A stretch of 64,000 nt of DNA. Source: an uncultured Planctomycetaceae bacterium. GTDB lineage: Bacteria; Planctomycetota; Phycisphaerae; SM23-33. The DNA lies in the NCBI GenBank assembly GCA_964631565.1, contig CAZVYJ010000001.1:12705-76704 (forward strand), written 5' to 3'. Positions 12,947 to 30,639 of this stretch are shown here, piece after piece. The notes under the pieces were generated by a model. The model was not told where the DNA came from, made no database searches, and saw only the letters and a list, made by a program, of their open reading frames with translations. Made by a program: the position numbers and the translations under genes. Position 1 is the stretch's first letter. Every line of letters begins with the position of its first letter.

Positions 12947-14304
12947 AAACGCAGATATGGATTACATCCGTGCTGCTCCTGACCGCCCTCGCCGCAGCGA
13001 CGCATGCCGCGAACGTGGACCTGGTCACGCTGCCCAGCCGCGACACGGTGCAACTGACCATCTACAACTCCGAGGATATTACGCTGGTCAAGGAGACACG
13101 CAATATCACGCTGAAGAAGGGCATGAATAAAATTCAGTTTTCATGGGCAGGCACGCTTATTGACCCGACGAGTGTGGAGTTCCGCCCGCTGACGCATGTT
13201 GATGAAATTGAATTGGCGGATACCGTATTTCCCGGCCAGAAGCCCCAGCACCTGATATGGAACATCGACTCGAAGTTTGAGGGTGAGGTGAAGGTTGAAG
13301 TGAGCTACTTCACCAGCGGCCTGACATGGACGATGGACTACGTCGCCACCTGCGACCCGGCCGAGGAGAAGATGCAGCTTCGCGGCTATGTTCGCGTGTT
13401 CAACAATTCCGGCGAGGAATACGAGAACGCCGAAGTCCGTCTTATTGTCGGCACGATAAATCTCGTCGAGAAGATAGCCGACCTCGCTCGCCGCAAGGGA
13501 ATACCCGTACCTCTTGAAGACAGTAAAGATTATAACGAAATGAAGAGAGGCGCCATAACAAAGAGCATCACCAGGTCAGAACGGGAATTCGATGGCGACA
13601 TGATTGAGGGAAAAAAGCCGCATGGGATAGTCAAGGAAGGCCTGAGCGAGTACTTCATGTTCTCGATAGAGGGCACGGAGACCATCCCCAACGGCTGGTC
13701 GAAACGCATGCAGGCGGTGAAGGCCGACGACGCGAAGTTCGACATACTTTACCGCATGCGTGACTTCCAGTACGGCCCGCGGCCGGTACGTTTCTTCATC
13801 TGGCGCAACGATGAGGAGCACAAGCTCGGCGAGTCGCCTCTGCCTGACGGCCGCGTACGCATCTTCCGCGAAAACGGCAAGGACGGCCTGAGCTTCCTCG
13901 GCGAGCAGCAGATACGCTACGTGCCGATAAAGGCTGAGATTGAAGTCAACCTCGGCGCTGACGACCTTGTCGTCTACGAGACCCGCAAGATGTCCTCTGA
14001 GCGGCTGAACTTCCACTTCCGATGGTCGGGCAGCAGGGAATGCGTGGACGGCTGGGACGAGAAATGCGCCTGGCTGGACACGGTCCGCAACTACCGCACC
14101 AAGCCGATAAGATTCGAGCTTCGCCGCCGCTGGCTTGGCGATGTCGATTACACGTCCGAAGTGACGACGACGCTGTTCGACTTCAACACGATTCAGACGA
14201 CCATCGACATCGGCGCCCGCGACAAGAAGGATTACCCCTGCACGGTGGTCACTCATTATGGAGTCAACAGCAAGCAGAACAGGATAAATCTCAGGAAAGA
14301 TTGA
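12943..14304 (+). CDS. secreted hypothetical protein, paralog 3
   Basis: ATGA overlap with the stop of paralog 2. Signal peptide [22 protein letters not shown]. Near-identical to paralog 2 outside 13494-13628. Confidence 0.75.
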
Positions 14305-14737
14305 TGGCGTCAGGCAGTGTTTCGACGAATGCGCGTATTTCGTCCCTGACGCGGCGGTAACAATTGAGAATCTCTTCTTCACTGTCGGCGGACTCAGCCA
14401 GCTTTGGGGGGTCGTCGAAGCCGACGTGAATCACGCGAACGCTGCCCGGGAAAACCGGGCAGTGCTCGTTTGCATGTCCGCACAATGTCACCACGCAGTC
14501 GAATTTCACGCCGGCCAGCTCGTCGACGTGCTTGGACCGCTGGGCCGATATGTCCACGCCCGCCTCGGCCATCACCTTCACCGCCCGCCCGTTCATGCCG
14601 TGCGTCTCGATGCCGGCCGAGTACGCCTCCAGGCAGTCGCCCTTGAGCTTCCTCGCCCAGCCCTCGGCCATCTGGCTGCGGCAGGAGTTGCCTGTGCAGA
14701 GAAACAGGATTTTCGTTTTTTTCTTACGTTCATTCAT
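14291..14737 (-). CDS. arsC: arsenate reductase, thioredoxin-coupled LMW-PTP family
   Basis: [27 protein letters not shown] (CX5R P-loop) and [15 protein letters not shown] (second/third Cys). ORF-track start at 14800 overlaps arsM, so the internal ATG is used; ATG at 14755 is an alternative. Confidence 0.85.
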
Positions 14738-14756
14738 CAGTTCACCACGAGTCATG

Positions 14757-15518
14757 CTATCGCAATGCCAGCACGGTAATGGAGGCGGCTGCGCCGGCAT
14801 TCGGGGCGGTTATCGGATCATCACAGGAATTGGACGCCTTGTAGGTATGGTCGCTGAGTATTTCCATTTTATCGAAGCCGGCGTCGCGGATAGCCTGCAG
14901 ATACTCATCCCGCAGCATCGCGCCGGCGATGCAGGCGGCGTAGAGGTCGGCGTCATTGTGGGCCGACTCCGGCAGCGGCCGGTTCAGCACGATGTCGCTG
15001 ACGATCATCCGCCCGCCGGGCTTCAGCACGCGGTAGACCTCACGGAATACCTGCGGTTTGTCCGGCGAGAGGTTGATGACGCAGTTGGAGATCACCACGT
15101 CCACGGAGGCGTCATCCACAGGCAGGTGCTCGATATGTCCTTCCCGGAACTCGACGTTGGCCAGACCAGTTGTCGTGAAGAACCTGACGGCATTTTTGCG
15201 GGCCAGTTCAAGCATCTCCGGTGTCATGTCCACGCCAATCGCCCGGCCTTCGTCGCCGACCTTATGGGCGGCCAGGAATACGTCCTTGCCTGCTCCGCTG
15301 CCGAGGTCCAGCACCACGTCGCCCTTGTTGATGTACCCGAACGCCAGCGGATTGCCGCACGACAGGCCCAGCTCCGACTCGGGCACGGGATGGTCGCTCA
15401 CGGTGTAGGCCTTGTCGTCGCAGCAGCAGGAGCTTTTCGAATCGCAGCATGAGGATTGCTTGCGGGCGACTTCGCCGTAAGCCTTCCGGACCAGTTCATG
15501 CGTTTTGTTTTTGGACAT
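14757..15518 (-). CDS. arsM: arsenite S-adenosylmethionine methyltransferase
   Basis: SAM motif [13 protein letters not shown]. Cys-rich N-terminus [23 protein letters not shown]. Typical ArsM length. Confidence 0.85.
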
Positions 15519-15541: not shown

Positions 15542-16750
<1,209 letters not shown>

Positions 16751-16834: not shown

Positions 16835-17206
16835 TCAGCAGGTTTTGTAATGCCTGCACAGTTCTTTGCGTGTCATCTTCCGGACGCATTTGAGTTTTTT
16901 GGCGTCTTCGCGAACGCGGCTGTCCTTGGCCAAGCATTCAATCGCCGCCGCCAAGATGGCGCGTACGCAAGGCGGGTCCGGTTTCTCGGTCAGGCTATAG
17001 TAAATCCACCGGCCGTCCTTGCGTGTTTCGACCAGGCCCGCCTGGTGCAGAATGGCCATATGCTTCGAGACAGTCGAGGGGGCCAGCTCCAGCAGCTCGA
17101 TGATCTGGCAGACGCACAGCTCACCGCCCGTAAGGGCCATCAAAGCCCGCACGCGGCCTTCGTCCGACAATGCTTTGGTGACAGTCAGAAACTCTCGCAC
17201 TTTCAT
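16835..17206 (-). CDS. arsR: ArsR/SmtB family metalloregulatory repressor
   Basis: wHTH domain with ELCVCQI metal(loid)-binding motif. RBS cggaga. First gene of arsR-acr3-arsM-arsC. Confidence 0.85.
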   Translation of the reverse strand: MKVREFLTVTKALSDEGRVRALMALTGGELCVCQIIELLELAPSTVSKHMAILHQAGLVETRKDGRWIYYSLTEKPDPPCVRAILAAAIECLAKDSRVREDAKKLKCVRKMTRKELCRHYKTC

Positions 17207-17333: not shown

Positions 17334-18197
17334 CTATCTCAGAGCCGGGATCAGCAGCACCGGCACGGGCGCATGGCGGGCGACGTTGTGGCTGACGCTG
17401 CCCAGGAACACTTCGCCGAAGAAACCGCGTCCCTGGCTGCCCATGACGACCAGAGAGATATCGCCCCGGCGAGTGCGGCGGAGGATTTCCTCTGCGGGCA
17501 GGCCGTATGGCAGCTCGATCTGAACATCCTGCACACCCGTACCGGCCAGTGCTTCTTTCATCCGCTCCAGCCGCTCGCCGTCAATGGCGTTGAACTCTTC
17601 CAGTCGCTCTTTGAGATGGCGGTCGATCTTCGTGCGATCCTGGACGTGCATCAGGACAACCGACTTTACGCCGCCGACCAGCTTCCGGACGGTCTGGAAT
17701 GCATGCTCGGCGTTTTCCGAGAAATCCGTCGGGAACAGTACGCGGTCCGGGGAGGCCAGCGGACATTCTCGCCGACAATCCTTGTCCTCATGGATGCGTG
17801 CAACCAGCAGCGGCAGTCGGCAGCTGTGCAGCACATCTCCAGCCGCGCCGCCCAGGAACACCTCGCCGGCCAGACTGTGTACTCTCGATCCGATGACAAC
17901 AAGGTCGCAGTCTTTGTCCTTGGCGGCGCGGGTCACTTCCACGCGAGGGTCGCCCAGAAGAACTTCAGCGTCGGCCGTATAGCCCTGCGTTTCGAGTATC
18001 TTTCGGCAGCGGTCGAGATCGCCCTTGAGGATGTTTTCGACATTGGCCCGGACGCCTTGAACCTCGTGGAGGCGAAGGCAAAACGCCAGGACGACATGGT
18101 CGACGCCCAGGCTGCGCAGGCCGACCTTGCACTGGAGGAACTTCTCAGACGGCTCGCTGAGGTCCGACACGATCAACGCCTTCTTGAATATGCTCAT
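17334..18197 (-). CDS. tandem universal stress protein (2x UspA domain)
   Basis: Internal start MSIFKKALIVSDLSE (ORF-track 5-prime extension to 19001 overlaps the neighbouring gene and is rejected). Two Usp repeats; VVMGSQGRGFFGEVFLGSVSHNVARHAPVPVLLI is the classic UspA C-terminus. Confidence 0.8.
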   Translation of the reverse strand: MSIFKKALIVSDLSEPSEKFLQCKVGLRSLGVDHVVLAFCLRLHEVQGVRANVENILKGDLDRCRKILETQGYTADAEVLLGDPRVEVTRAAKDKDCDLVVIGSRVHSLAGEVFLGGAAGDVLHSCRLPLLVARIHEDKDCRRECPLASPDRVLFPTDFSENAEHAFQTVRKLVGGVKSVVLMHVQDRTKIDRHLKERLEEFNAIDGERLERMKEALAGTGVQDVQIELPYGLPAEEILRRTRRGDISLVVMGSQGRGFFGEVFLGSVSHNVARHAPVPVLLIPALR

Positions 18198-18217: not shown

Positions 18218-18928
18218 TCACAGCCTCAATCCATAGATGTGCGTCAGCGTGTAGTAGACGCCTACCGCGACGAAGATAATGCCGGTGATCAACCTGAACC
18301 ACCGTTCGATCATGGTCATGGCGCTGAACGCCTTGCCTACGTACTGGCTGGCGAAGGCGATGACCAGGGCGAAGGCGATAACCGGCACGGCTGTACCGAT
18401 GCCGTAGGCCACCGGCGGCAAAACCGTTGAGCCGTGCTCCAGCGAGATCACCAAGGCGCTGAGGAACAGGGCGATCGACGGCGGGCAGAAGGCCAGGGCG
18501 AACAGGATGCCCAGAGGCAAGGCCCAGATTGCGCCGCCCTTGGCGATGCGTTCCTGGAGCTTCGAGCCGCCAACGCCGATGGAGATGTTCAACTCGATCA
18601 GTCCGAGCAGGATCATTCCGATGAACAGCAGGGCCGGCCCCAAGGCCAGGTTCCCGTAATGCTGAAGGCCTCGGGAGGTCGGGCTGGCGTACTCCTTCAG
18701 GCTTCCCGCACCGCCGGTGGCGGCCTGAAACGCCCAGAGCAGCGCCACTCCCAGCCCCACATAGACCAGCGTGCGGCCGAGCGTGTACAGCGCGGCCGAC
18801 AGCAGCACACGCTTGGAGTTGCCGACGTTGCGGCTGAGAAACGAAATCGCCGCGATGTTCGTCGCCAGCGGACACGGGCTGACCGCCGTCAGCAGCCCGA
18901 ACCAGAAGACGCCCGCAAGGACCGCCAT
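18218..18928 (-). CDS. CcdA/DsbD-family transmembrane thiol-disulfide electron transporter (ArsG-like)
   Basis: Six TM helices with the SPCPL motif. GTG at 18937 would give GTGA overlap with the upstream stop; ATG at 18928 is used here. Confidence 0.75.
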   Translation of the reverse strand: MAVLAGVFWFGLLTAVSPCPLATNIAAISFLSRNVGNSKRVLLSAALYTLGRTLVYVGLGVALLWAFQAATGGAGSLKEYASPTSRGLQHYGNLALGPALLFIGMILLGLIELNISIGVGGSKLQERIAKGGAIWALPLGILFALAFCPPSIALFLSALVISLEHGSTVLPPVAYGIGTAVPVIAFALVIAFASQYVGKAFSAMTMIERWFRLITGIIFVAVGVYYTLTHIYGLRL

Positions 18929-18933
18929 GAAAC

Positions 18934-19404
18934 TCACTTGCCGCCTCCTTCCATGGCGGAGCGAATGCCCGTCCGCAGGTAGTCGGTGAGCCGGTCGGCA
19001 TTCGAGGCCAGTTCCATCACCTCATCCAGTCGCACGCGGGAGACCTCCTTGCCGTCCTCGAACCGCACTGCGATGACCATGTTTTCGCCGACGTTGTACT
19101 TGTCGGCCAGCGCTGCGTTCTCAGGCTCCAGGTAGTTCAGAGAGACGAATTCCATCGTGCCGGCGGCGACCGCTTCGGCGAACTCCTCTCGCACCAGTTT
19201 CTCAGCCGTCGTTTCGATGAAGGTGCAGGTTACGCAGGGAATGCCGTGCATGTAGTAGACCACGACTTTATTCTCGCCCGGCGCAACTGCCGGCTCCGGC
19301 GGGGCGGGAGCGTTGCGTAAGGCAATTTCCTTGCCGACGGCCACGCCGATGCTGACCAGCAGAAACGCCGTCAACAACTTGCCGATGATCTTCTTGAGCT
19401 TCAT
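18934..19404 (-). CDS. small exported CxxC protein (CVTC), paralog of 20414-20872; possible ArsF-family
   Basis: aaggag RBS. Signal anchor MKLKKIIGKLLTAFLLVSIGVAVG. VVVYYMHGIPCVTCTFIE motif shared with the paralog (VIVYYMHRTYRCPACREME). Confidence 0.6.
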   Translation of the reverse strand: MKLKKIIGKLLTAFLLVSIGVAVGKEIALRNAPAPPEPAVAPGENKVVVYYMHGIPCVTCTFIETTAEKLVREEFAEAVAAGTMEFVSLNYLEPENAALADKYNVGENMVIAVRFEDGKEVSRVRLDEVMELASNADRLTDYLRTGIRSAMEGGGK

Positions 19405-19413: not shown

Positions 19414-20364
19414 TTACTTCACGCCCATTTCCGCCATCTTCTTCTCCAACTCCTCCTGGGGCCAGAAACCGGTGTGGCGGAAAGCCTCCTTGCCGCTCGC
19501 GTCAAAGAAGATTTGCACCGGGATGGACTGGATTCCGTAGCGAGCGGCTAGTATCTGCTCCTCGCGCACGGACACGAAGATGACGTTCGCCTTGCCATCG
19601 TACTTTTTCTTCAGGGTCTCCAGGATGGGCGCCAGCATGTCGCAAGGCCGGCATCCCTTGGAACCGAAGTCCACCAGCGAGGGCTTGCCACTGGCGCGGG
19701 CCTTGTCCACCGGATTGTCCATCGCCAGTTCGGCCTGATGCTTCAGCCAAGGCGCGGCGACCTCAATAGTGACCCGCTGGCCGAGGGTCTGTATGTGCTT
19801 GTCCACGATCTCCTGTTGTTTCTGCTGCCGCAGAAACTTGGCGATGGCGTCCTTGACATCCGCCAGTTTACGGTCCCCAATCATATCTTTATTCTTCTCG
19901 TAGAACTCGGCCACCTCGGCGTCCGTGACCTTTACATCCGCAGTGAGCTTGTCAAAATACGCCTTGAGTAATTCCTGCTCGGAGAGCCCGGAGGTGTCCT
20001 TGCCTTCCTTGGCCGCGGCTGCCTTGGCTTCCGCAGCCAGCAGTTGCCGCGTGGCCATCTGCTCCAGCAGGAAGAAGGCGTTCTTGCGGAGTTGCTCACG
20101 CACGGTTTCCGGGGCCTTGGCGATCTCGGCATCAACGTCTTTCTGTGTAACCTTCAGATCATCGGCTTGCAGCAGGACGCCGTCTGGCAATTCCATCGGC
20201 CGGGCATGGACCAGAGCGGCGGACGCAAGATTAGGATAAACGTCCGACACGGACTTCGACTTCTCATCCTGTGCGGAACTCGGTTGCGTGGTCGCATCTT
20301 GCGCCAAAGCGCACGAAGCCATGAAGCCTATGGCGACTGCAGATATCATCAAACGAATAATCAT
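19414..20364 (-). CDS. periplasmic thioredoxin (CRPC) fused to an N-terminal SurA/PpiD-like chaperone-type domain
   Basis: Internal start MIIRLMISAVAIGFMASCALA (signal peptide). C-terminal LVDFGSKGCRPCDMLAPI is a thioredoxin fold. The N-terminal ~200 aa are helical, Lys/Glu-rich and SurA_N-like. Confidence 0.65.
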   Translation of the reverse strand: MIIRLMISAVAIGFMASCALAQDATTQPSSAQDEKSKSVSDVYPNLASAALVHARPMELPDGVLLQADDLKVTQKDVDAEIAKAPETVREQLRKNAFFLLEQMATRQLLAAEAKAAAAKEGKDTSGLSEQELLKAYFDKLTADVKVTDAEVAEFYEKNKDMIGDRKLADVKDAIAKFLRQQKQQEIVDKHIQTLGQRVTIEVAAPWLKHQAELAMDNPVDKARASGKPSLVDFGSKGCRPCDMLAPILETLKKKYDGKANVIFVSVREEQILAARYGIQSIPVQIFFDASGKEAFRHTGFWPQEELEKKMAEMGVK

Positions 20365-20413: not shown

Positions 20414-20872
20414 TCAGTTTGCTTTATCCAGGCGATCACGAATCGCCCCTGCGACGTACGCCTCAAATTCATCTGGTTTTTTATATAAATTCCATGTCTC
20501 TTCGAGTACTTCGTGCGATACCTCTTTTCCGTCGCGATATGAAACCAGAACCAATGAACTGGTGTTCAGTTCGTATCGCTCGGCTATATCTTCGTGCTCC
20601 TGGTAATTCAGGACTTGCCACTGCACTTTCCCCGAAGCCAACTCGTTGGCGAACTTGTCCTGGACCACGTAGTGGGCCATTTCTTCCATCTCCCGACACG
20701 CGGGGCAGCGGTATGTCCGGTGCATGTAATAAACAATGACACTGTTGGATGGAGCGGCTGCGCCTGAATCGCCGGCCTTGCCGGAATTCCCGGAATCTGA
20801 TGTCTCCGTCGCACAGCTGGTCAGCATCATGCCGAACAGTCCAAAGATCGCCGCCTTAACCAATACTTTCAT
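20414..20872 (-). CDS. small CxxC lipoprotein (CPAC), paralog of 18934-19404
   Basis: Lipobox MKVLVKAAIFGLFGMMLTSC and YYMHRTYRCPACREMEEMAHYV. Confidence 0.6.
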   Translation of the reverse strand: MKVLVKAAIFGLFGMMLTSCATETSDSGNSGKAGDSGAAAPSNSVIVYYMHRTYRCPACREMEEMAHYVVQDKFANELASGKVQWQVLNYQEHEDIAERYELNTSSLVLVSYRDGKEVSHEVLEETWNLYKKPDEFEAYVAGAIRDRLDKAN

Positions 20873-21758: not shown

Positions 21759-22190
21759 TTACGCTCCAGTTCGTAAATGGTTTAATATTTCCAAAGCCTT
21801 GACGACGACCTTCTGTGCCTGCTCGCTGGTGCAGCGGACACCCTTGATCTTCTCGATGCCGAGGTCGGTTACTCTGACATGTTTATAATTGTTAATTCCG
21901 TGGCGGTCGAATGTCTTTTTCGCGCAGTCCATGGGGCAGCCGTCGATCACCATGTTCACGTCGGCGTCGCGGGCGGTCTGCACCATGCCTTGTATGTCGC
22001 CGCCCAGCCCGGCCAGGCAGAACATCGCGCCTTCGCCGGCGAAGGCCAGCTCTCTCGCAGCCTTGTCGGCAATTTCACCCACATTCGCACTGCCGGAGCA
22101 GGCGTACAAAAGGACAACCTTGCCCGCGTCGCTCCCGCAGCAGCAGGATGCTTCATTGGTCGGTTTCGGGATTCCACAGCAGTCGCTCAT
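21759..22190 (-). CDS. DGC-domain putative zinc-binding protein
   Basis: Cys-rich N-terminus SDCCGIPKPTNEASCCCGS and the diagnostic VIDGCPMDCAKK motif. Confidence 0.7.
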   Translation of the reverse strand: MSDCCGIPKPTNEASCCCGSDAGKVVLLYACSGSANVGEIADKAARELAFAGEGAMFCLAGLGGDIQGMVQTARDADVNMVIDGCPMDCAKKTFDRHGINNYKHVRVTDLGIEKIKGVRCTSEQAQKVVVKALEILNHLRTGA

Positions 22191-22191
22191 A

Positions 22192-23022
22192 TCATTGCTC
22201 CTGTTCTAGGGGTTCTGGTCGGGCCGAGTTCTTGGATGCCGGGCCATTCGTATCTTGAAGGCAGTTCTTATTGACCACATCGCCGCGCCGGCCTCTGTGT
22301 TCGTACGAATCCGGCGTCCAGTGAAAGTCTTTCAGGATGCTGACCGCAAAGCATTCTTCGGGTGGGGCATTCAGCAGACGCCTGGCATAGTCCCATTCCA
22401 TGCGCTGGCAAAGCCGCATCTCCTCCAGCGTGCACCCACCGGAGCGGATCTTCTCTTCCAGGGCGAGCACCTCAGCCGGAAAGACACCGGCCTTCAGCGA
22501 TACTTTGACGGTCTTGCCCGTCGAGAAACGGTGCAGGATGAACTCGTTGCCCAGCGCCGGGTCGATCTTCTGCGTGCCAAACCGGACTCTCCCGCCTGTC
22601 AGGTATGCGGCCACATCCCCATAGCACGGCGAATTGTTCGTGATGCAGCCAGTATCGGTCCGGTCTATAATGCCATCGGGATACAGAGCATTCAGGCCCA
22701 CGGACATGGCACATGCGGCTGTGACTAGGCCGTCGCACGGATGGCCATGCATCTTGACCAGGTCCTTCAGCGTGATTGTCTTCGTTTCGGAGACGTAGGG
22801 GCCGAGGCTGCTCTCCGTGTCCCTGACGTGGAACACCGGCGCGTACTGGCCCCTGGCCATCCAGTCGAAATAGTACCACGTAGGGCTGTTATCCATCGAC
22901 TCCGTCGTCTTCATTGTGCCGCCGGAGCGGTCCGTACAACCGGCAAGGCAAGCTGCTTCCATTGCGAATGCAAGGGTCGCCACAGCCCCCACAACGACAT
23001 GATGTCTGTTGATACAACTCAT
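22192..23022 (-). CDS. FmdE/FwdE-domain lipoprotein
   Basis: Internal start MSCINRHHVVVGAVATLAFAMEAACLAGC (lipobox), with ATGA overlap to the RND stop. HGHPCDGL motif of the FwdE family. ORF-track extension to 23418 rejected. Confidence 0.55.
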   Translation of the reverse strand: MSCINRHHVVVGAVATLAFAMEAACLAGCTDRSGGTMKTTESMDNSPTWYYFDWMARGQYAPVFHVRDTESSLGPYVSETKTITLKDLVKMHGHPCDGLVTAACAMSVGLNALYPDGIIDRTDTGCITNNSPCYGDVAAYLTGGRVRFGTQKIDPALGNEFILHRFSTGKTVKVSLKAGVFPAEVLALEEKIRSGGCTLEEMRLCQRMEWDYARRLLNAPPEECFAVSILKDFHWTPDSYEHRGRRGDVVNKNCLQDTNGPASKNSARPEPLEQEQ

Positions 23023-26000
23023 TCGGCTGTCTCTTTCTGCGGTTGCGGACGCAAACCAAGCAGCCAGCGACCGGTGGCCGCCGCCTTGACGGTCACGGTG
23101 TCCAAGCTCGAGTACACCACCGGGATGACGATCATGGTCAGGAAGGTGCCGACGGCCAGACCGGTGGCTGCCACGATGCCCAGCGGACTCATACGTTCCA
23201 GGCCAACCGCCATCTGGAAGACCAGCGGCGTCAATCCGACGATCGTCGAGACGGTCGTCATCAGGATCGGGCGAATCCTCAGGCGAACGGACTGGAGGAT
23301 CGCCTCGTCCTTGGTCACTCCGGCCTTGCGGGCGTTGAGGACGAAATCCAGCAGCAGGATGCTGTTGTTGACGATGGTTCCGCCCAGGAAGATCATGCCC
23401 ATCGTCGCCGGTTTGCACATCGGTTTGTCGAACAGCAGCAGGCCCCAGAAGGCTCCGGCGATGGCCAGCGGAATGGCGGCCATGATCGTCACGGGATGCG
23501 CGAACGATTTGAACATGGCCACTAGGAGGATGTACAACAGCACGAAGCCGATCATCAGGGCCTTGCCCATTTCGGCACTGCCGGTTTTCATGTCGGCCGT
23601 TGTGCCGGAAACATCGATGGTGTACCCGGCGGGGGGATGGATGGCCTCCAACCGCTTCGTGGCCATGCCCGCAATCTGGCCGATGGTATAGACGCGGTTG
23701 ACGCCTGTAATGTCGATGGTGTTACACAGCCGCTCGCGGGTAATGAAGGGTTGGTTTCGCTGCGGATTCAGCGTCGCCATCGCTCGCACAGGCAAGGGGC
23801 CAAACCGCGTCGAAACATACGCGTCGGAGAGCTGCGCCGGTTCGCTGATGTTCTCGGAGGCGTACTGCACGGTAATAGGAATGTCCAGATAGCCTTTGAG
23901 GCGCATGGGCGAGGCCGGGATGCCCTTTACGATGCCCTTGAGTTCCCAGGCAAGGTCGGCCGGCGTGGTCTGATAGAGTTTCGCCAGAGCAGGATCGACG
24001 TCCACGTGATATTCGGTCTTGTCGAAGTACCAACTCCGGCGAACGTCCATCAAGCCGGATAGTCCCTTAAGCGCGTTTCGGCACTGGTCGGCCAGTTGGC
24101 TGACTACATGAGAATCAGGCCCGCTGACGATGATGTCCAACGGAGCGCGGGTTGTGGAGACCGGTGTGGCCCCGTACTCGGTGATTCGAAAGCTCCGCAC
24201 GCCCGCAATCTGCCGCAACTGCTCTCGCCACTTATCCTGGATTTGCCAGATCGTTTCTGGCCTGTGCTGGCGATCCACCAGGTGAATGATGATCTTGCCC
24301 GACTGGGCGGTGGCGCCGCCTCCGCCGAAGCTGATCTGCCCGGGCTCCGACCCTACGATAGACGAGATGGTTTCCACGCCGGGCTGTTTATAGACGGCCG
24401 TTTCGATCTGGCTGAGCGTTTTCTCGACCTCGGCCGGAGATGCGTCGGTCGGCGCGTCGAACTCCAGATTGACGATGCCCGTGTCCATCGGCGGCATGAG
24501 TTCTCCGCCGATCAAAGGCTTGACCACCTTCATGGTCACGATGAAGAACGCCGCCGCGAGGATCAGCGTGGCCAACCGCCACCGCAGAGCTCTTCGCAGA
24601 ATACTCAGGAAGAACCGCGACAGCAGGCCGACCCCTTTGTCCGTGTTGGCGAATAGACGCTCCAGGAAGTTCCTGTGTTCATGCGGCCGAGCCAACAGAC
24701 GTGATGCCATCAGAGGCACAACCGTCAACGAGACCAGCAAAGAGGCCACCAAGGTAGCCGAGATCATCATGTTCAACGGCCGCATCGTCTGCTGGGAATA
24801 GCCACCGGTGAACATCACGGGAATCAGCACGATGACCGTCGTGAGCATGCCCGCCGTCACGGCCAGGGCGACTTCACTCGTTCCTTGCTTGGCCGCTAGG
24901 GCTGCGTCGGGATGCTTCATCTCGCGGTAGTGCCGGTAGATGTTCTCCAGAACGACGATGGAGGCGTCCACCACCATTCCCACCGAGATGATCAGACCGG
25001 AGAGCGTCACCATGTTCAGCGTGTACGGGCTGAACCACAGCACGACCAGGCCGGCCAGAAACGCCAGCGGGATGCTCACGGAAACAACTACGGCCGCCCG
25101 CATGTCGGCCAAAAAGAAGAAGATCACGAGTACGGTCAGGACCACCGCCTGCCATAGGGAGCTGCGCATGCCGTTGACGTTCAGGTCGATGAGGGGCTGC
25201 TGGTCGTCGGTGATCTGAAAAGCGATGTCAGGGTATTGGGCCTCAAGCTTGGGCAGGAAACTCTTGATGCTCTGGATGGCGCTGACCGTCGGACCGTTAT
25301 CGGGCCGCATGACATTGACGGCGATGGCCGGCTTTCCGTTGCCGTGATAGACGCTGCGCTGCTCCGCTTCGCCCAGGCTGACGTTGGCTACATCCTCTAG
25401 GCGGAGCCAACCCTGGTCGGAGTGCTTGATCGGCAGTTGACGGATCTGCTCAAGGTCAGCGAACTCACCGATTGTCTTGACCAGGTATTCCCGTCGCTCC
25501 GAATAGATCGTGCCGGCCGGGGCCGATACGTTCTGTTTCGCCAGAGAAGCGACCACCTCATTGATCGACAAGCCGTTAGCAGCAAGGCGATCCCGGTCCA
25601 CCCGCACCTTCACTTCAGGCTGATGGCCGCCGAATACGTCCACGTCGGCGACGCCTGGCAGCGTCAGGATCTGGTCCTCGATCTGGTTCTCGGCCAGGAG
25701 GCGAATCTGCGACAGTGTCTTGGTGCTGCCGGGCTTGGGCGACAGGGCCAGTGTCAACAGCGGCCGTGTCGCATCGGTGATTTTGTAGATACGAGGTTCC
25801 AGGATGTCCTTGGGCAGTTGGGCCCGGATTCGGCCGATGGCGTTCTGCACGTCCAGGACCGCCTCGCCGATCGGTTTGCTGTAATCGAACTCGGCGTTTA
25901 CGGAGGATACCTCGTCGCGGCTGGTGCTGGTGACCTTGGCCAGCCCGCCGAGGGTGTTCAGTTCCTTCTCGACGACTTGGGTGATCTTGTCGGCTACATC

Positions 26001-26150
26001 GCCAGCGTCCGCGCCCGGATATACGGTGATGACGACCACCTGGGGCGGAACCGTGTTGGGGAATAAGTCTGTGGGAATCTTAATGAAGGCGAAAAAACCC
26101 AGCGCAACCACCACCAGCACCAGGGCGATGATCACGAACGGATTCCTCAT
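23019..26150 (-). CDS. RND efflux transporter permease subunit (AcrB/CzcA superfamily)
   Basis: Start MRNPFVIIALVLVVVALGFF 17 nt after the MFP stop. 12-TM topology with two large periplasmic loops. Proton-relay motif VGMVVDASIVVLENIY in TM4. Confidence 0.9.
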   Translation of the reverse strand: MRNPFVIIALVLVVVALGFFAFIKIPTDLFPNTVPPQVVVITVYPGADAGDVADKITQVVEKELNTLGGLAKVTSTSRDEVSSVNAEFDYSKPIGEAVLDVQNAIGRIRAQLPKDILEPRIYKITDATRPLLTLALSPKPGSTKTLSQIRLLAENQIEDQILTLPGVADVDVFGGHQPEVKVRVDRDRLAANGLSINEVVASLAKQNVSAPAGTIYSERREYLVKTIGEFADLEQIRQLPIKHSDQGWLRLEDVANVSLGEAEQRSVYHGNGKPAIAVNVMRPDNGPTVSAIQSIKSFLPKLEAQYPDIAFQITDDQQPLIDLNVNGMRSSLWQAVVLTVLVIFFFLADMRAAVVVSVSIPLAFLAGLVVLWFSPYTLNMVTLSGLIISVGMVVDASIVVLENIYRHYREMKHPDAALAAKQGTSEVALAVTAGMLTTVIVLIPVMFTGGYSQQTMRPLNMMISATLVASLLVSLTVVPLMASRLLARPHEHRNFLERLFANTDKGVGLLSRFFLSILRRALRWRLATLILAAAFFIVTMKVVKPLIGGELMPPMDTGIVNLEFDAPTDASPAEVEKTLSQIETAVYKQPGVETISSIVGSEPGQISFGGGGATAQSGKIIIHLVDRQHRPETIWQIQDKWREQLRQIAGVRSFRITEYGATPVSTTRAPLDIIVSGPDSHVVSQLADQCRNALKGLSGLMDVRRSWYFDKTEYHVDVDPALAKLYQTTPADLAWELKGIVKGIPASPMRLKGYLDIPITVQYASENISEPAQLSDAYVSTRFGPLPVRAMATLNPQRNQPFITRERLCNTIDITGVNRVYTIGQIAGMATKRLEAIHPPAGYTIDVSGTTADMKTGSAEMGKALMIGFVLLYILLVAMFKSFAHPVTIMAAIPLAIAGAFWGLLLFDKPMCKPATMGMIFLGGTIVNNSILLLDFVLNARKAGVTKDEAILQSVRLRIRPILMTTVSTIVGLTPLVFQMAVGLERMSPLGIVAATGLAVGTFLTMIVIPVVYSSLDTVTVKAAATGRWLLGLRPQPQKETAE

Positions 26151-26167
26151 GGAAAAGCCGATGAGAT

Positions 26168-27355
26168 TCACTTCATGGCCTCCACCTTGAGTCCCGCCGA
26201 CAGCTGCACCCAACCCAGGAACGTGCTCAGGACGACTTGGTCGCCTTCTCGCACGCCCTCGACGGCCACGTCGTCACCATCCGCGCCCAGAACGCTCACC
26301 GGTCTGGCGCGCAGATGCTCATCGTTGACAATGAACACAAACGTCTTGCAGTCTGGCGATTCGACCACGCTGGAAGATGGGACCAGCGTGACATTCATTC
26401 TGGAACTCAGCACCACCTTCAGGCTCATATAGGCTCCGCAAGACAGGCCCTCCGCTTCGGGACCGTCGAGGTAGACTTCCGCCCGAAGCATGCGCGCGGT
26501 GCTCAGCGAGGGGAACATGTGCGACAGCACTGCCGTCCGGCCCTTGCTGGCAACGGAGAAGCTTACCGGCAGCCCCTCATGAACCTGCGGCAGATCCTGC
26601 TGGGGTACATCGAAGCAGAGCTTGAACTTGCTGCGGTCCTCGACGGTCATCAGGCTCTTGCCGGGGGTCGCCAGATCGCCGGGGTCCACCATGCGATGCG
26701 ACACCAGGCCGTCAAATGGGCTGCGAATCGTGCAGTAGCCCAGCGTCGTCTCCAACTCGGCCTGCTTGCGTTTCAGGGCCTCGATCTGCCGCTCGATGGC
26801 GGCAGACTTCTGGCGAGCGGCGTCCAGTTTGCCTTGGGCCTCATTGGCTTTGTCGGCCGTGCCCTCAGCTTGCGCCCCGGGGATCGCGCCTTTGTCGGCA
26901 AGCTCCTTGTCTCGTTGTCGCTCCCGCTGCCAGTAAGCACTGGTCTTCGCCAATGATTCCACGGTCGCCTGATTGGAGGCCAGGTCGGCCTGGGCCTGCT
27001 CGACTTGCGCCTTGGCGGCAGCAATGCTGTCCTCAATCTGTCGCCCGTCGAGAATCACAAGGATGTCGCCGGCCTTTACTGCCTCGTTTTCGTCGTGCAG
27101 GACCTTCTCAACCGTAGCCGTCAGACGGGCCGAGACATCCGCCAAGCGGATCGGCTCCACCACGCCCAGATAGTCACGCGTTTGTTGCAGATTGCCCTGG
27201 CGAGCCGTCGCAACGCGAACCGGGACTGGCTGCATGCCGTACTTCGGAGCTGCAGCCAACGCCAGCTTCTTGTGCCGGACCAGCAGGAGGCCGCCAACCA
27301 CGATCAGCCCAACCACCGCCAGTACGATTACGATGCGAATGCTTTTCTTGACCAT
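26168..27355 (-). CDS. RND efflux periplasmic adaptor (membrane fusion protein, HlyD family)
   Basis: Internal start MVKKSIRIVIVLAVVGLIVVGG overlapping the OMF stop by 1 nt. Coiled-coil hairpin, lipoyl and beta-barrel segments. ORF-track 5-prime extension rejected. Confidence 0.85.
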   Translation of the reverse strand: MVKKSIRIVIVLAVVGLIVVGGLLLVRHKKLALAAAPKYGMQPVPVRVATARQGNLQQTRDYLGVVEPIRLADVSARLTATVEKVLHDENEAVKAGDILVILDGRQIEDSIAAAKAQVEQAQADLASNQATVESLAKTSAYWQRERQRDKELADKGAIPGAQAEGTADKANEAQGKLDAARQKSAAIERQIEALKRKQAELETTLGYCTIRSPFDGLVSHRMVDPGDLATPGKSLMTVEDRSKFKLCFDVPQQDLPQVHEGLPVSFSVASKGRTAVLSHMFPSLSTARMLRAEVYLDGPEAEGLSCGAYMSLKVVLSSRMNVTLVPSSSVVESPDCKTFVFIVNDEHLRARPVSVLGADGDDVAVEGVREGDQVVLSTFLGWVQLSAGLKVEAMK

Positions 27356-28761
27356 TACTGCCGCGCTCCTATCGCCAGTTTCAACTGGGCCAGGGCGACG
27401 TTGTAGTCGGCCAGCGCCCGGTAGTAGTTGGTCTGCGAGTCCAGCAGGGCCGACTGCGCGTCCAGAACGTCCACGATCGCGCCCTTGCCCAGGTCGTACT
27501 TCTCGCGCTCGATCCGCAGGCTTTCCTTGGCCTGTTCGATAGCTGTTTCCGTGGCCTTGACTCGCTCCCTGGCCGAGCCGACATTCAGCACGGCCGTCTC
27601 CACGTCGAGCTGAATCTGAAGTTCCAATTGCCGCAATCGCTCTTGAGCGGCCATGAGACGGGCCTTCTCTTGGCGAATTCTCGCCTCGATTCGTCCGCCT
27701 TCGAAAATGGGGATATCCACCACGACGCCTACCCGGCCTACGTCGCCAGAACTGTCCGTCCCGGAAGGCCGATCCGTCGTACCGGCGGCCCAACGGCCAC
27801 CGTATGCGCCCTCCAGCGAAACTGTCGGCCACTGCGCCGCCCGTGCGGCGTCCACGGCCTTGGCCTGAGCCTCCAACTCCGCACGGGCCGCAAGGTAGTC
27901 GGATCTGCCGTTGAAAGCCTGACTCAGGGCTTGAGCGGTTTCGGGGATGGCAGCTTCGGCAATCGCCAGTTCGCCGGCGGGGTCAACCGGCTTGTCCGGC
28001 CGATCCAAACCCAGCAGGTTCGTCAGCACGCGGGCCTGGACGGCAAGCACGTTGCGCTCCCGCACAAGCTGCTGGTCCAGGTTGGCCACGCGGACCTCCG
28101 TGCGTAGCTGGTCCACCTTGGCCGCCTTCTGCGCCGCGATCAGGTCCTCGATGCGTTTGAGGTGCTCCTGGAGCGCCTTCTTTGAAAACTCCAGCGATTC
28201 GATGACCTCCCGTTGGGCCAGGATGCCATAGAACACGCTAGAGACGTTGAAGACCAGTTCCTCCTGCGTCCGGGCGAGGCGGTGCTCCGACGCCTTCTGG
28301 AGCAACTCTGCCGCCTTGATCTCACTGGTGATCCGCCCGCCGGTGAACAGGGGCATGGTCACCACCAGATCGCCGGCGAATATGTCCCGGCTGAATGCGC
28401 CCGATTGGTTATTCTCGCTCGCCGCGATCAATCGCTGGCTGTCCAGGTAGTGATTGTATCCGCCAATGGCGTGCAGGCTGGGCAGGCGCTGTCCTGCGGC
28501 AAAGTCGCGCTGCGCCGTCGCCGCGGCCACGTCATACACTGTGGCGGCAACTTCCGGGTTGTTGGCCAAGGCCACGCGAACGGCCTCATTCAAAGTCAGC
28601 GGACCCTGAACCGGTTGGGTGGCTGCGGAATGGGGGCCGCCGAGATAAGGACGCGGGCCTCGCCCCATGCCCGCGTATGGGTCGGTCGGATTGGTCAGCA
28701 CGCACCCCGGAGCTAGAGCCGCAAGGGCGACCAGCCAGAATGTCTTCATCGGGGTATTCAT
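27355..28761 (-). CDS. TolC/OprM-family outer membrane efflux protein
   Basis: Lipoprotein-like signal LAALAPGC. Two tandem repeats with long coiled coils. C-terminal DVLDAQSALLDSQTNYYRALADYNVALAQL is typical of OMF proteins. Confidence 0.85.
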   Translation of the reverse strand: MNTPMKTFWLVALAALAPGCVLTNPTDPYAGMGRGPRPYLGGPHSAATQPVQGPLTLNEAVRVALANNPEVAATVYDVAAATAQRDFAAGQRLPSLHAIGGYNHYLDSQRLIAASENNQSGAFSRDIFAGDLVVTMPLFTGGRITSEIKAAELLQKASEHRLARTQEELVFNVSSVFYGILAQREVIESLEFSKKALQEHLKRIEDLIAAQKAAKVDQLRTEVRVANLDQQLVRERNVLAVQARVLTNLLGLDRPDKPVDPAGELAIAEAAIPETAQALSQAFNGRSDYLAARAELEAQAKAVDAARAAQWPTVSLEGAYGGRWAAGTTDRPSGTDSSGDVGRVGVVVDIPIFEGGRIEARIRQEKARLMAAQERLRQLELQIQLDVETAVLNVGSARERVKATETAIEQAKESLRIEREKYDLGKGAIVDVLDAQSALLDSQTNYYRALADYNVALAQLKLAIGARQ

Positions 28762-28765
28762 AGGC

Positions 28766-30310
28766 TTACAGGAACGCTCCGAAAATCATGCCGGAGATCG
28801 TGGCCATCACGATCACCAGCGAACAGTACACGATGGTCTTCTGCGTGCCCATGATGCTGCGTATGACCAGCATGTTCGGCAGCGACAGCGCAGGCCCCGC
28901 CAGCAGCAGCGCCAGAGCCGGTCCTTTGCCCATGCCCGCGCCGATCAGGCCCTGGAGGATGGGCACCTCGGTCAGTGTGGCGAAATACATGAATGCGCCG
29001 AAGACGCTGGCGAACAAATTTGTCCATATCGGCCAGACGGAACGCACGACGCTCTCGAAGGCGCCGCCGCCCCAGCCGGTCATCTCCAGCATGCGATTGG
29101 GACTGTCGCCGACGAGCGACTCGACGTATCTGCTCGGAATGAAGCCTTCATGGTCCGGTCGACCCAGCAGGAAACCCGCCACCAGCACTCCGAAGAACAG
29201 CAGCGGGAGTATCTGCTTGGCGAAGGTCCACGTGGCGGCGAACCAGTCGCCTCCCTCGCCCTTGTTGGTGCTGAGAATGACCGACAGGCCGACAATCGCG
29301 GCCGAGAACGGAATAAGCACCCACAAATCCTTGTTTATCGGCAAGACAAAAGCCAGGATAGCCGGCGGAATCGCCGCAAGCACGACCTTCCACCAGTGAA
29401 CCTTGAACCAGAAGATCAGGATCAGGGAGAAGGCCGCGGCGAACCCAGCCGTGACCAGCCATTTGTTCCGCCAGATCGAAGTCCATACGCCGGGAAGCGG
29501 GGTTCTTTCCACAATGTCGGCTGAGTTGAGAGTGATTTCCTCGCCCTCATCCGGTCCTTCCAGCAGCTTCACCCGGTAGGCAGCGCCGGCTGCGGCTGCG
29601 TCTTCCGGGGCCTTGGTGATGGCCGCCCTCATCTCTGTGCCGTCATTGAGCTTGAAATACCAATCGTTGGGCGCTCCCCAGTTGGCGAAGACAAGAATGC
29701 CGATCATGACAAAGAAGAACAGGGCGTTGTGCGTCAGCGGCCGCGTTACTTCAGGTTCCGGCATTCCCAGTTGGCCGTTGGCCTTGGCAATCTCCTCCTT
29801 GCGGTAGATGAAGTGCATGATCAGGCCGATTATCACGCTGAACGATATTGCGCCGACCGCGCGAGCTATTCCCAGTTCCAGTCCGAGGATGCGGGCGGTA
29901 AGGATTATCGCCAGCACGTTGATGGCCGGGCCGGAGTACAGGAACGCCGTCGCCGGGCCAAGCCCGGCGCCCATCCGCCAGATGCCCGCGAACAGAGGCA
30001 GCACGGTGCAGGAGCAGACGGCCAGTATCGAACCCGATACGCTCGCCACGCCATACGCCAGCACCTTGTTGGCCTTGGCCCCGAGGTACTTCATCACCGA
30101 CGCCTGGCTGACAAACACGCCGATGGCCCCGGCGATGAAGAACGCCGGCACCAGGCACAACAGCACATGCTCCCGCGCGTACCACTTGGCCAGGTGCAGT
30201 GCCTCCATGACGCCCCAGTTAAATCGGTCCCAGTTCACGGGCAGCCAAAAGAACACTATGAATACAACAAGCATCAACAACGGGGTTTTTATCGTATTTT
30301 TTACGCTCAT
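28766..30310 (-). CDS. DUF318/ArsP-type permease with ~150-aa soluble insertion
   Basis: ATGA overlap with the arsR stop (ATG at 30310; ORF-track start 30319 is GTG). Polytopic protein with the AVCSCTVLPLFAG Cys motif resembling the ArsP TPFcSCS region. Confidence 0.6.
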   Translation of the reverse strand: MSVKNTIKTPLLMLVVFIVFFWLPVNWDRFNWGVMEALHLAKWYAREHVLLCLVPAFFIAGAIGVFVSQASVMKYLGAKANKVLAYGVASVSGSILAVCSCTVLPLFAGIWRMGAGLGPATAFLYSGPAINVLAIILTARILGLELGIARAVGAISFSVIIGLIMHFIYRKEEIAKANGQLGMPEPEVTRPLTHNALFFFVMIGILVFANWGAPNDWYFKLNDGTEMRAAITKAPEDAAAAGAAYRVKLLEGPDEGEEITLNSADIVERTPLPGVWTSIWRNKWLVTAGFAAAFSLILIFWFKVHWWKVVLAAIPPAILAFVLPINKDLWVLIPFSAAIVGLSVILSTNKGEGGDWFAATWTFAKQILPLLFFGVLVAGFLLGRPDHEGFIPSRYVESLVGDSPNRMLEMTGWGGGAFESVVRSVWPIWTNLFASVFGAFMYFATLTEVPILQGLIGAGMGKGPALALLLAGPALSLPNMLVIRSIMGTQKTIVYCSLVIVMATISGMIFGAFL

Positions 30311-30639
30311 TTGCAGCACTCGCTGAGAATGGCTTTTTCACCGTCTATCCGTTCGCGGAGCACGTCGGTCACGCAGTCGAGGAATCGCAGCAGGCAGGCC
30401 GTCCGCAGCGAGTAGAGCATTTTGAGGCCTTCCTTGCGGTAATCGATTACGCCGGCCTTAAGCAGGACGGCCAGGTGACGCGACACGTTGGACCTCTGAG
30501 CGCCGACGTGCGCCGCGATGTCGCAGACGCACTGCTCGCCGTCGCACAGGAATTCGATTATCGCCAGGCGTATCGGGTGGCCGGCCGCCGCGATTATCTC
30601 CGCCTTCAGCTTCAACAGCTTCTTCGTTGCAGAATCCAT
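30307..30639 (-). CDS. arsR: ArsR/SmtB family transcriptional repressor (second copy)
   Basis: IRLAIIEFLCDGEQCVCDIAAHVGAQRSNVSRHLAVLLKAGV (wHTH) with CVCD metalloid-binding pair and C-terminal ECCK. First gene of the 14-gene operon. Confidence 0.85.
   Translation of the reverse strand: MDSATKKLLKLKAEIIAAAGHPIRLAIIEFLCDGEQCVCDIAAHVGAQRSNVSRHLAVLLKAGVIDYRKEGLKMLYSLRTACLLRFLDCVTDVLRERIDGEKAILSECCK

Follow-up and report, generated by a model that had tools for sequence, protein, structure and literature searches.

An ArsR-headed planctomycete operon with a tripartite RND pump and a predicted thiol relay is one version of a recurrent bacterial gene cassette

The 64,000-nucleotide stretch of DNA analysed here (the window; contig CAZVYJ010000001.1 of assembly GCA_964631565.1, from an uncultured Planctomycetaceae bacterium) carries two neighbouring operons, each headed by a gene for an ArsR-type repressor. 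Operon 1 is an ordinary arsenic resistance operon. Operon 2 joins an ArsP_1-family permease, a tripartite pump of the resistance-nodulation-division (RND) type, an FmdE-fold lipoprotein, a DGC-domain protein and several thioredoxin (Trx)-fold proteins to a membrane protein of the ArsG family, and is a recurrent new variant assembled from known module types. Arsenic resistance is usually described at the cytoplasmic membrane. The cassette represented by operon 2 would add to this picture an exit of its own through the outer membrane and a reducing system in the periplasm, and it is found in at least 61 independent loci of the Planctomycetes-Verrucomicrobia-Chlamydiae (PVC) group and other, mostly uncultured bacteria. 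A first-pass annotation of the window, made from the sequence alone, had recorded this island and interpreted it. The observation is borne out; of the interpretation, the protein families and the anatomy of a thiol relay stand, whereas acquisition of the island as a block is not supported.

Open reading frame (ORF) listing with start-site inspection, followed by Pfam and NCBIfam hidden Markov model (HMM) scans of the encoded proteins, places 18 consecutive genes between positions 14291 and 30639, all of them on the minus strand (Table 1). Operon 1 is formed by the four minus-strand genes arsR1-acr3-arsM-arsC. Operon 2 comprises 14 genes over 13.3 kb (17334-30639, minus strand) in the order arsR2, ArsP_1 permease, outer-membrane factor (OMF), periplasmic adaptor (MFP), RND pump, FmdE-like lipoprotein, DGC protein, Thioredoxin_3, CIPC thioredoxin, CPAC ArsF, SurA-like protein with a CRPC thioredoxin domain, CVTC ArsF, ArsG and Usp. 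The start of the RND gene is set at the GTG at 26171, as in the 1050-aa database version (P0135) and in homologues of 1050-1052 aa. From arsR2 onwards, the 13 junctions of operon 2 measure -4, +4, -1, -4, -4, +1, +3, -4, +44, +49, +9, -4 and +20 nt; six are overlaps (five of 4 nt and one of 1 nt), three are gaps of 1-4 nt and four are gaps of 9-49 nt. Because nine of the 13 junctions lie within 4 nt, a single promoter and operator precede arsR2 and a prediction scan found no internal promoter or terminator above background within operon 2, the operon is compatible with one transcription unit. Such a unit had been proposed at first on the ground that nearly all junctions are overlaps of 1-4 nt; the tight spacing and the fit to a single unit hold, and 'nearly all' is an overstatement. 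In the interval between usp and arsR1 no intrinsic terminator or terminator-like structure is detected, so that read-through from operon 2 into operon 1 is possible. The first-pass annotation was right about the common strand, about the classical arsR-acr3-arsM-arsC set (HMM scores) with its TTGACG-16-TATAAT promoter (promoter scan), and about a 14-gene operon of about 13.3 kb headed by a second ArsR. HMM searches also uphold the families that it named (two ArsR, Acr3, ArsM, an ArsC of the low-molecular-weight protein tyrosine phosphatase (LMW-PTP) type, ArsP_1 and OEP/MFP/RND), HMM or fold searches do the same for FmdE, DGC, three Trx, the DsbD-type protein and Usp, and the motifs CPKC, CIPC, CRPC, CVTC and CPAC are all where they were said to be.

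A scan of genome and metagenome collections yielded 61 de-duplicated loci of at least 4 kb around the FmdE-like gene, from Kiritimatiellota, Lentisphaerota, Verrucomicrobiota, Planctomycetota, Hydrogenedentota, Armatimonadota and Omnitrophota. On the strand of the FmdE-like gene and no more than 8 kb from it, Thioredoxin_3 is present in 84% of the loci, ArsR in 57%, a periplasmic Trx in 51%, DGC in 48%, a long ArsP_1 permease in 44%, ArsF in 38%, at least one of acr3, arsC and arsM in 28%, ArsG in 20% and an RND pump in 15%. Other companions are DsbD_TM (23 loci), TauE (17), a second ArsP_1 clade (12), an F420_oxidored-like gene (12), a MacB-type pump (six) and TrmO_N (five). The RND pump near the lipoprotein gene is thus a minority option; it lies immediately 5' of the FmdE-like gene in only five loci (L006, L017, L029, L041 and L042), with a partial gene in L023. 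In L029/L037 the order of the window is repeated nearly gene for gene, with identities of 87% for the RND pump, 79% for the permease and 93% for Thioredoxin_3, and L041 matches the window for OMF, MFP, RND, FmdE-like, DGC and Thioredoxin_3 as far as the end of its contig. The comparison of gene neighbourhoods that had been suggested as a check therefore finds the same one-strand gene set in dozens of unrelated contigs, and for this reason operon 2 is one version of a widespread cassette, not a one-off or a chance juxtaposition.

The OMF, MFP and RND genes follow one another directly (junctions -1 and -4 nt) and make up a complete tripartite pump set. The nearest solved chain to the RND protein is MdtB (E 5e-99). 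Its score against the CusA/CzcA model TIGR00914 is 340 bits, under the cut-off of 701, and the multidrug-type model gives 598.6 bits. A heavy-metal Cus/Czc identity of the pump is therefore rejected, and closeness to MdtB instead of CusA/CzcA speaks for an organic, amphiphilic substrate more than for a bare cation. The clade of this pump contains more than 100 proteins at 67-89% identity from Planctomycetota, Desulfobacterota, Kiritimatiellota and Alphaproteobacteria. Seven of nine sampled contexts of the clade, from four phyla, carry cassette genes: the window, L029, L041, L033, L035, L098 and L100. L033, from the isolate Desulfosarcina sp. BuS5, has ArsR, two FmdE genes, TauE, OEP-MFP-RND and DUF1805; L035 reads ArsP_1-OEP-MFP-RND-Thioredoxin_3; L098 combines Trx, DsbD_TM and DGC with OEP-MFP-RND; and L100 reads ArsP_1-OEP-MFP-RND-DGC-TrmO-Thioredoxin_3-Trx-ArsF-like-DsbD_2. 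The remaining two of the nine, L034 and L099, contain no cassette genes. In other loci the FmdE-like gene has a MacB-type pump or an RND pump from a different subfamily beside it (RND identities 23-87%). Together with the RND-clade contexts that carry cassette genes, these pumps suggest that the cassette is repeatedly, and probably functionally, coupled to a pump that spans the envelope.

A metal-regulated tripartite pump accompanied by a small periplasmic protein with a Cys/His/Met site, which may hand over substrate, is a logic shared with CusCFBA. Operon 2 differs from that system in its HAE-1-like RND protein, in an FmdE instead of a CusF fold and in an ArsR regulator in place of CusRS. 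Across the 118 sequences of the RND clade (67% identity or more), a single cysteine is invariant, C919 of the 1050-aa form, in a PMCKP motif. It lies in the C-terminal membrane domain with conserved methionines around it, which is unusual among HAE-1 pumps.

The ArsP_1-family permease is likewise set apart from its characterised relative. It shares with ArsP of Campylobacter jejuni the Pfam family PF03773, a transmembrane cysteine pair and ArsR control; it differs in its length of 514 aa, owing to an insertion of about 190 aa that is kept among cassette homologues. A CSC motif (C99/C101) is present in all homologues and H48/C52 in 96%. Among NCBIfam models only weak matches are found, to the SO_0444 (Cu/Zn) and SaoE exporters. 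The insertion, at about residues 180-370, consists of extra hydrophobic segments and a soluble stretch, and the cassette homologues that keep it are 513-515 aa long.

The remaining genes outline a thiol relay across the cytoplasmic membrane. The 77-aa Thioredoxin_3 protein scores 106.3 bits against TIGR00412 (ArsE), whose cut-off is 62, and ArsG scores 225.6 bits against NF040495, whose cut-off is 200. Thioredoxin_3 and the DGC protein have no signal sequence, and both ArsF proteins, the two larger thioredoxins and the FmdE-like protein have a lipobox, a signal peptide or a membrane anchor. The fold of the small CVTC/CPAC pair, claimed earlier to be that of thioredoxin, was examined by an AlphaFold2 (AF2) model of CPAC ArsF built from a two-sequence alignment. 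The domain has a predicted local distance difference test (pLDDT) score above 90 and a beta-alpha-beta-alpha-beta-beta-alpha order, and Foldseek returns 69 PDB hits at E <= 1e-3, of which all 50 listed are thioredoxin-fold proteins, which bears the claim out. Profile searches with ArsF give weak matches that likewise tend towards the thioredoxin fold. A homologue search with CPAC ArsF as query returned the query alone, and the family alignment was assembled from sequences of related loci; in it an H-x3-CxxC motif is conserved. The CRPC protein matches PDB thioredoxins with E values down to 2e-17 and has a signal peptide read from its sequence. The CxxC of the CIPC thioredoxin is present in all homologues.

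ArsG has two Pro-flanked cysteines, Cys22 (SPCPLA) and Cys151 (FCPPS), one in each of two transmembrane segments, and both are invariant in 12 homologues. The strongest argument for ArsG as an electron transporter is the alternation among loci: a CcdA-type DsbD_TM gene is found in 23 of the 61 related loci, where others carry ArsG, and in L004, L006 and L007, whose coordinates were checked, it lies directly 3' of a periplasmic Trx or ArsF gene. This alternation looks like an analogous gene displacement. Because ArsF has a thioredoxin fold, ArsG has an invariant cysteine pair and CcdA-type genes take its place in 23 loci, the anatomy of a thiol relay is present, and the electron flow through it is predicted. 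The relay had been presented as undescribed. Its anatomy is upheld, and the 77-aa Trx, the paralogue pair and the supposed CcdA turn out to belong to the already named ArsE, ArsF and ArsG families.

Relays of the DsbD/CcdA/ScsB type, such as CcdA-ResA, DsbD-DsbC/CcmG and ScsB-ScsC, offer the closest comparison; ScsB/ScsC belong to a copper tolerance locus (Cho et al. 2012, PMC3322552). Common to these relays and operon 2 are a cytoplasmic Trx-type donor, a membrane protein with two conserved transmembrane cysteines and periplasmic CxxC acceptors. Operon 2 differs in having a DsbD_2 protein (ArsG) instead of DsbD_TM, four acceptors, a proposed FmdE-fold client and an electron transfer that is predicted, and its set is ArsR-regulated and linked to genes for efflux.

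Three side observations concern the relay proteins. Residues 1-20 of the CIPC thioredoxin contain a cytoplasmic QCPCSGGG motif that precedes the membrane segment. Its conservation (the CPC motif is found in 69% of homologues) supports the long start with an ATGA overlap and suggests that the motif may be a second, cytoplasm-facing thiol site. A local dip in GC content covers 20414-21525: GC and GC at third codon positions (GC3) are 0.514 and 0.595 in the CPAC ArsF gene and 0.553 and 0.690 in the CIPC Trx gene, against island means of 0.603 and 0.779, and this segment may have a different history. In some cassette variants, genes for multihaem cytochromes c and/or Alginate_exp-type barrels adjoin the DsbD/DGC/Trx genes (L031:846-3302, L098:1029-5074 and L033:13706-14911), which hints at an additional envelope redox module.

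At the core of the cassette stands the FmdE-fold lipoprotein. Its H92, H94, C96 and C133 are invariant and C205 is 94% conserved, and it differs from its FmdE/FwdE relatives in being a lipoprotein and in lacking a zinc ribbon. Hundreds of homologues exist at 55-80% identity; the subfamily is narrow, with only 198 clusters (50% identity) at E <= 1e-3 among 1.8 billion representatives. In the DGC protein C18, C31, C58, C85 and C89 are conserved in all homologues. PDB sequence searches return nothing useful for the FmdE-like, ArsG or DGC proteins.

The regulatory region of operon 2 is well defined. A putative ArsR2 operator, a 12-2-12 inverted repeat, overlaps the -10 element of the arsR2 promoter. 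The half-site ACTATGTGAGTA recurs 5' of ArsR2-clade genes in six other loci (L012, L016, L029, L032, L072 and L097), and distant ArsR clades have palindromes of their own at the equivalent position. An autoregulated repressor fits this arrangement. Among the 43 sequences of the ArsR2 clade, conservation is 74-81% for the CVC cysteines and 91-93% for C82 and C89. The CVCD motif that had been noted in the second ArsR is present; as an arsenic marker it is not specific, and the C82/C89 pair is the better conserved. A C-terminal CC pair of the window's ArsR2 is almost unique in its clade (2%).

Taken together, these features lead to a predicted mechanism in which operon 2 would provide ArsR-repressed, envelope-spanning export and thiol protection against a thiol-reactive metalloid, most plausibly trivalent (organo)arsenicals. 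The chance that this reading is right is put slightly short of even. The substrates would be As(III) species, inorganic ones among them but above all organic ones, methylated or otherwise, and operon 2 would act beside operon 1. ArsR2 would sit on the 12-2-12 operator over the -10 element until binding of the metalloid to its cysteines releases it. The ArsP_1-type permease, with its invariant CSC motif, would by analogy with its family transfer the substrate from the cytoplasm to the periplasm, and the HAE-1-like RND/MFP/OMF pump would expel it across the outer membrane. Electrons are predicted to flow from Thioredoxin_3 (ArsE-like) through the membrane cysteines of ArsG to the two ArsF proteins, the CIPC Trx and the CRPC Trx, and these periplasmic Trx-fold proteins would hold cysteines of the periplasm in the reduced state and clear of metalloid adducts. 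More speculatively, the FmdE-fold lipoprotein would be the main client of the relay, its H-x-H-x-C...C...C site binding, handing over or transforming the metalloid, and the Cys-rich DGC protein might buffer or chaperone the metalloid in the cytoplasm.

Arsenicals are favoured as the substrate because of the adjoining ars operon, the ars genes in 28% of the related loci, the ArsE/F/G and ArsP_1 families, the CVC motif of ArsR2 and the HAE-1-type pump. Such a pump suits amphiphilic organoarsenicals, for example the MAs(III) that ArsM makes. The first-pass annotation called the substrate open, with which the present analysis agrees: arsenicals are favoured yet unproven.

Several points weigh against this reading. 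No ars gene lies within 8 kb in 72% of the 61 loci, many of which are on short contigs. The CVC(D) motif is also found in CadC-type Cd/Pb/Zn sensors and is not arsenic-specific, and the C82/C89 pair corresponds to no arsenic or other ArsR-family sensing site known to us. ArsG and a DsbD_TM protein align colinearly but weakly (hhalign probability 6.6%), and PDB sequence search finds no solved homologue of ArsG. An AF2 model of the FmdE-like protein (pLDDT 81) has 3d00, 2gvi and 2glz as its top Foldseek matches (E 4e-5 to 8e-4), and matches only structural-genomics FmdE-like proteins without known biochemical function. Nine loci (15%) have, in place of the CIPC Trx or in addition to it, an orthologous Trx fused to two TRASH-like motifs and a MerB-like domain, hgcAB lies on the cassette strand in two loci (L069 and L075), and the RND-clade context L034 is placed among DsrE, TusA, rhodanese and TsoX genes. 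Finally, the literature gives ArsEFG the role of a nitroreductase and an efflux system, not of a relay.

The foremost alternative is that reduced periplasmic thiols of the cassette capture Hg(II), methylmercury or Cd/Cu(I)/Ag(I) for export, the ars genes being mere neighbours in a general metal(loid) island. It is judged unlikely, and the MerB-like fusions and hgcAB of related loci are what point to mercury. The fusion sequences (L029:12887-14170, L019, L021, L023, L041, L048, L058, L063, L075 and L093) carry TRASH-like motifs of the form CxxC-x21-CxxxC; of the eight cysteines, seven are the same in all 10 sequences and one is kept in nine of the 10. With 59.9 bits their MerB-like domain passes the Pfam cut-off (27), yet with 26.7 bits it stays far under that of the MerB model NF033555 (200), and the domain is therefore rejected as a genuine MerB. 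In the window the CIPC thioredoxin has no TRASH/MerB-like extension, and HMM scans find no MerB-like, TRASH, hgc or other mer genes there. CDF-family and P-type ATPase genes in some loci, and the resemblance of ArsR2 to CadC-type CVCD sensors, would suit a soft metal; against this, the RND pump is HAE-1-like and not of the CusA/CzcA type, and ars genes are the commonest functional neighbours of the cassette. The HgcA-like genes themselves (L069:2707-4121 and L075:18058-19257) encode a CdhD domain and a NVWCAAGK cap-helix motif. In L069 a gene for an HgcB-like ferredoxin lies 3' of the HgcA-like gene and ArsR is also present, and a methyltransferase gene is found upstream in both loci.

A broader proposal is that the FmdE-fold lipoprotein and the CcdA/ArsG-type relay form a hitherto unrecognised periplasmic thiol-driven machine that transforms organometal(loid)s in anaerobic diderms, the ArsEFG families being electron relays in general. 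Such a machine might cleave or rearrange C-As or C-Hg bonds without oxygen and pass the products on to a pump spanning the envelope, and the TRASH/MerB-like, TrmO-like and Tat-exported flavoprotein genes of relatives would be its accessories. This is rather unlikely. With regard to the flavoprotein, an FMN_red/WrbA-like gene is seen at the cassette end in 16% of loci (L029:16904-17602 and nine others), where the window has Usp; the N-terminus of the L029 protein resembles by eye a twin-arginine signal (RRAFLAAAGG).

In Shewanella putrefaciens 200, arsEFG has been described as a roxarsone/nitarsone system made up of a nitroreductase and an efflux permease (Chen, Zhang and Rosen 2019, Environ Sci Technol 53:6182). 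Citing papers describe ArsG as an efflux transporter and state that ArsE and ArsF confer resistance to organoarsenicals. Operon 2 could accordingly be read as an expanded ArsEFG system, in which ArsE and ArsF would reduce the nitro group of trivalent roxarsone or nitarsone, ArsG would export the aromatic amino-arsenicals and the RND pump would complete the export. The same three families are indeed present above curated cut-offs (106 against 62 bits for ArsE, 95 and 71 against 60 for ArsF, and 225.6 against 200 for ArsG), in an ars context and with an ArsR regulator. However, the genes are non-contiguous in operon 2 and ArsF is duplicated, and DGC, the FmdE-like lipoprotein, two periplasmic thioredoxins, the ArsP_1 permease and the tripartite RND pump are added, for which, apart from the permease, this scheme has no place. 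Both ArsF proteins are predicted to be periplasmic and thioredoxin-fold, with no domain for a flavin or metal cofactor. ArsG has the pair of Pro-flanked cysteines expected of an electron transporter and is replaced by CcdA-type genes in other loci. This anatomy points to an electron relay, not to a nitroreductase with a permease. Sediments and lakes are the habitats of the host lineages, and synthetic nitroaromatic arsenicals would hardly be the main selective agent there. An expanded ArsEFG system is therefore considered improbable.

A defence against envelope thiol stress or reactive sulfur and selenium is, to a similar degree, improbable. Here the relay would repair oxidised or persulfidated cysteines, ArsR2 would be a BigR/SqrR-like sensor, and the permease and the RND pump would export sulfur or selenium species or organic thiol-reactive toxins. 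TauE-family exporters in 17 loci and the sulfur-trafficking genes around the pump of L034 keep a role in reactive sulfur or selenium possible, and the conserved C82/C89 pair and the weak matches of the permease to the SaoE and SO_0444 models are consistent with it. However, the match of ArsR2 to BigR (37 bits) is far under the cut-off of 155, most of the ArsR2 clade keeps the CVC motif, and ars genes are the dominant identifiable neighbours.

The last alternative, a multidrug RND pump and a cytochrome-c-type CcdA/Trx maturation set that happen to lie between two ArsR genes, draws on the HAE-1 type of the pump and on the four gaps of 9-49 nt, which could conceal internal starts, but it is highly improbable and largely refuted by synteny, because the combination recurs on one strand in many phyla and in near-identical order in L029/L037 and, up to the contig end, in L041, different RND subfamilies or MacB-type pumps accompany the FmdE-like gene, and the window region has no cytochrome c maturation genes.

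If the preferred reading, ArsR-repressed export with thiol protection against trivalent arsenicals, is true, operon 2 would show how diderm anaerobes shield their periplasm from thiol-reactive metalloids, and the FmdE-fold lipoproteins and DGC proteins, both orphan families, would gain a first functional context. The published mechanism of ArsEFG would then probably need to be read anew. Through its occasional linkage to MerB-like domains and hgcAB, the cassette is also connected with mercury cycling in these organisms. No account of this architecture, or of FmdE, DGC or RND pumps linked to ars operons, came up in the literature searched. The earlier statement that this is not a described arsenic-resistance architecture stands within that scope.

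Table 1. Coordinates of the features in and next to the two operons, in the order of transcription
Feature	Position	Strand	Evidence
TrmO/TsaA-like gene, frameshifted	31335 to ~30830	-	TrmO_N 108 bits
arsR2 promoter, TTGAAA-17-TACTAT	30748-30720	-	promoter scan
Putative ArsR2 operator, 12-2-12 inverted repeat ACTATGTTACTA-AA-TACTCACATAGT	30724-30699	-	overlaps -10 element
arsR2, ArsR/SmtB repressor, CVCD motif and C82/C89	30307..30639	-	HTH_5 and NF033788 above cut-offs
ArsP_1-family permease, 514 aa, insertion of ~190 aa	28766..30310	-	PF03773 213.4 bits, residues 37-511 against a 294-position profile
Outer-membrane factor, TolC-like lipoprotein	27355..28761	-	OEP, two stretches, 227.7 bits
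Periplasmic adaptor (MFP)	26168..27355	-	HlyD_D23, HlyD_3; TIGR01730 157 bits, cut-off 95
RND inner-membrane pump, HAE-1-like	23019..26171	-	ACR_tran 651.7 bits
FmdE-fold lipoprotein, cassette core	22192..23022	-	PF02663 55.1 bits, cut-off 22.9
DGC-domain protein, cytoplasmic, five invariant cysteines	21759..22190	-	PF08859 107 bits
Thioredoxin_3 / MTH895-ArsE family, 77 aa, CPKC, cytoplasmic, proposed electron donor	21522..21755	-	PF13192 94 bits
Membrane-anchored periplasmic thioredoxin, CIPC, N-terminal QCPCSG	20917..21525	-	Pfam Thioredoxin
ArsF-family thioredoxin-fold lipoprotein, CPAC	20414..20872	-	NF040494 95.1 bits, cut-off 60; lipobox LTSC read from sequence
Secreted protein with SurA-N-like helical and thioredoxin domains, CRPC	19414..20364	-	Pfam Thioredoxin, residues 225-311
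ArsF-family thioredoxin-fold protein, CVTC, N-terminal membrane anchor, periplasmic	18934..19404	-	NF040494 71.4 bits, cut-off 60
ArsG-family DsbD_2 membrane protein, proposed thiol:disulfide electron transporter	18218..18937	-	DsbD_2 53.6 bits, cut-off 24.9
Tandem Usp, last gene of operon 2	17334..18197	-	Pfam Usp, two stretches, 124.7 bits
Operon 1 promoter, TTGACG-16-TATAAT	17259-17232	-	11 of 12 consensus positions; best site in 18 kb scanned
arsR1, ArsR/SmtB repressor, ELCVCQ motif	16835..17206	-	HTH_5 and NF033788 above cut-offs
acr3, arsenite efflux permease	15542..16750	-	TIGR00832 382.5 bits, cut-off 282.8
arsM, arsenite S-adenosylmethionine methyltransferase	14757..15518	-	NF008823 300.3 bits, cut-off 263; Pfam Methyltransf_31
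arsC, putative thioredoxin-coupled LMW-PTP-type arsenate reductase	14291..14737	-	Pfam LMWPc 69 bits

The island had been thought to be acquired as a block, bordered by a convergently overlapping gene on the left and a frameshifted tsaA on the right. Block acquisition is not borne out. GC and GC3 are 0.603 and 0.779 in the island and 0.591 and 0.757 in the flanks, the tetranucleotide distance is unremarkable, and the flanks contain the housekeeping genes accC, pfk, kpsF and lptD. No integrase, insertion sequence (IS) element or tRNA is present at the island borders in the window flanks, and an Rfam scan of the window finds two distant tRNAs and no other RNA. With a composition like that of the flanks and no mobile-element genes, recent horizontal acquisition is unsupported. 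The high identity within the RND clade across phyla suggests that the cassette may have spread horizontally at an older date.

The frameshift on the right is present in the sequence. The TrmO/TsaA-like gene is recovered as two tblastn segments in different frames that switch at about 31195-31205. A role as a neutral border is unlikely, since it lies on the same strand as the island and its family recurs inside related cassettes: the segments are 59-61% identical to cassette-linked TsaA-like proteins (L014, L019, L020, L062 and L091), and in L100 a gene of the TrmO/TsaA family stands between the DGC and Thioredoxin_3 genes. It is thus probably a decayed or mis-sequenced cassette accessory and not a neutral border marker. 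The S-adenosylmethionine-dependent TrmO-fold protein may be a genuine accessory of the system that has been inactivated here, a sequencing error being the alternative. The M50 peptidase gene at 31346-32065 is also on the minus strand, and the minus-strand run continues beyond 30639.

Operon 1 is comparable to classical arsR-acr3-arsM-arsC operons in its CVC-type ArsR and its strong sigma-70-type promoter, which is flanked by inverted-repeat arms at 17225-17236 and 17262-17273. Its ArsC scores 160.1 bits against the equivalog model TIGR02691, slightly under the cut-off of 174.3, and the catalytic cysteines, in CTGNSCRS and TLC/EHC, are present when read by eye; sequence inspection also finds the conserved cysteines of ArsM. 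At the other end of operon 2, the position of Usp has a parallel in L021, where a Usp gene likewise lies 3' of ArsG. On the left border, the convergent overlap noted at the start is confirmed as one of 14 nt between a DUF4139 ORF (12943-14304, plus strand) and arsC. The left flank as a whole (456-14304, plus strand) encodes three SPFH/Band-7 proteins, one ABC ATPase, three ORFs without Pfam matches and two paralogous DUF4139 proteins.

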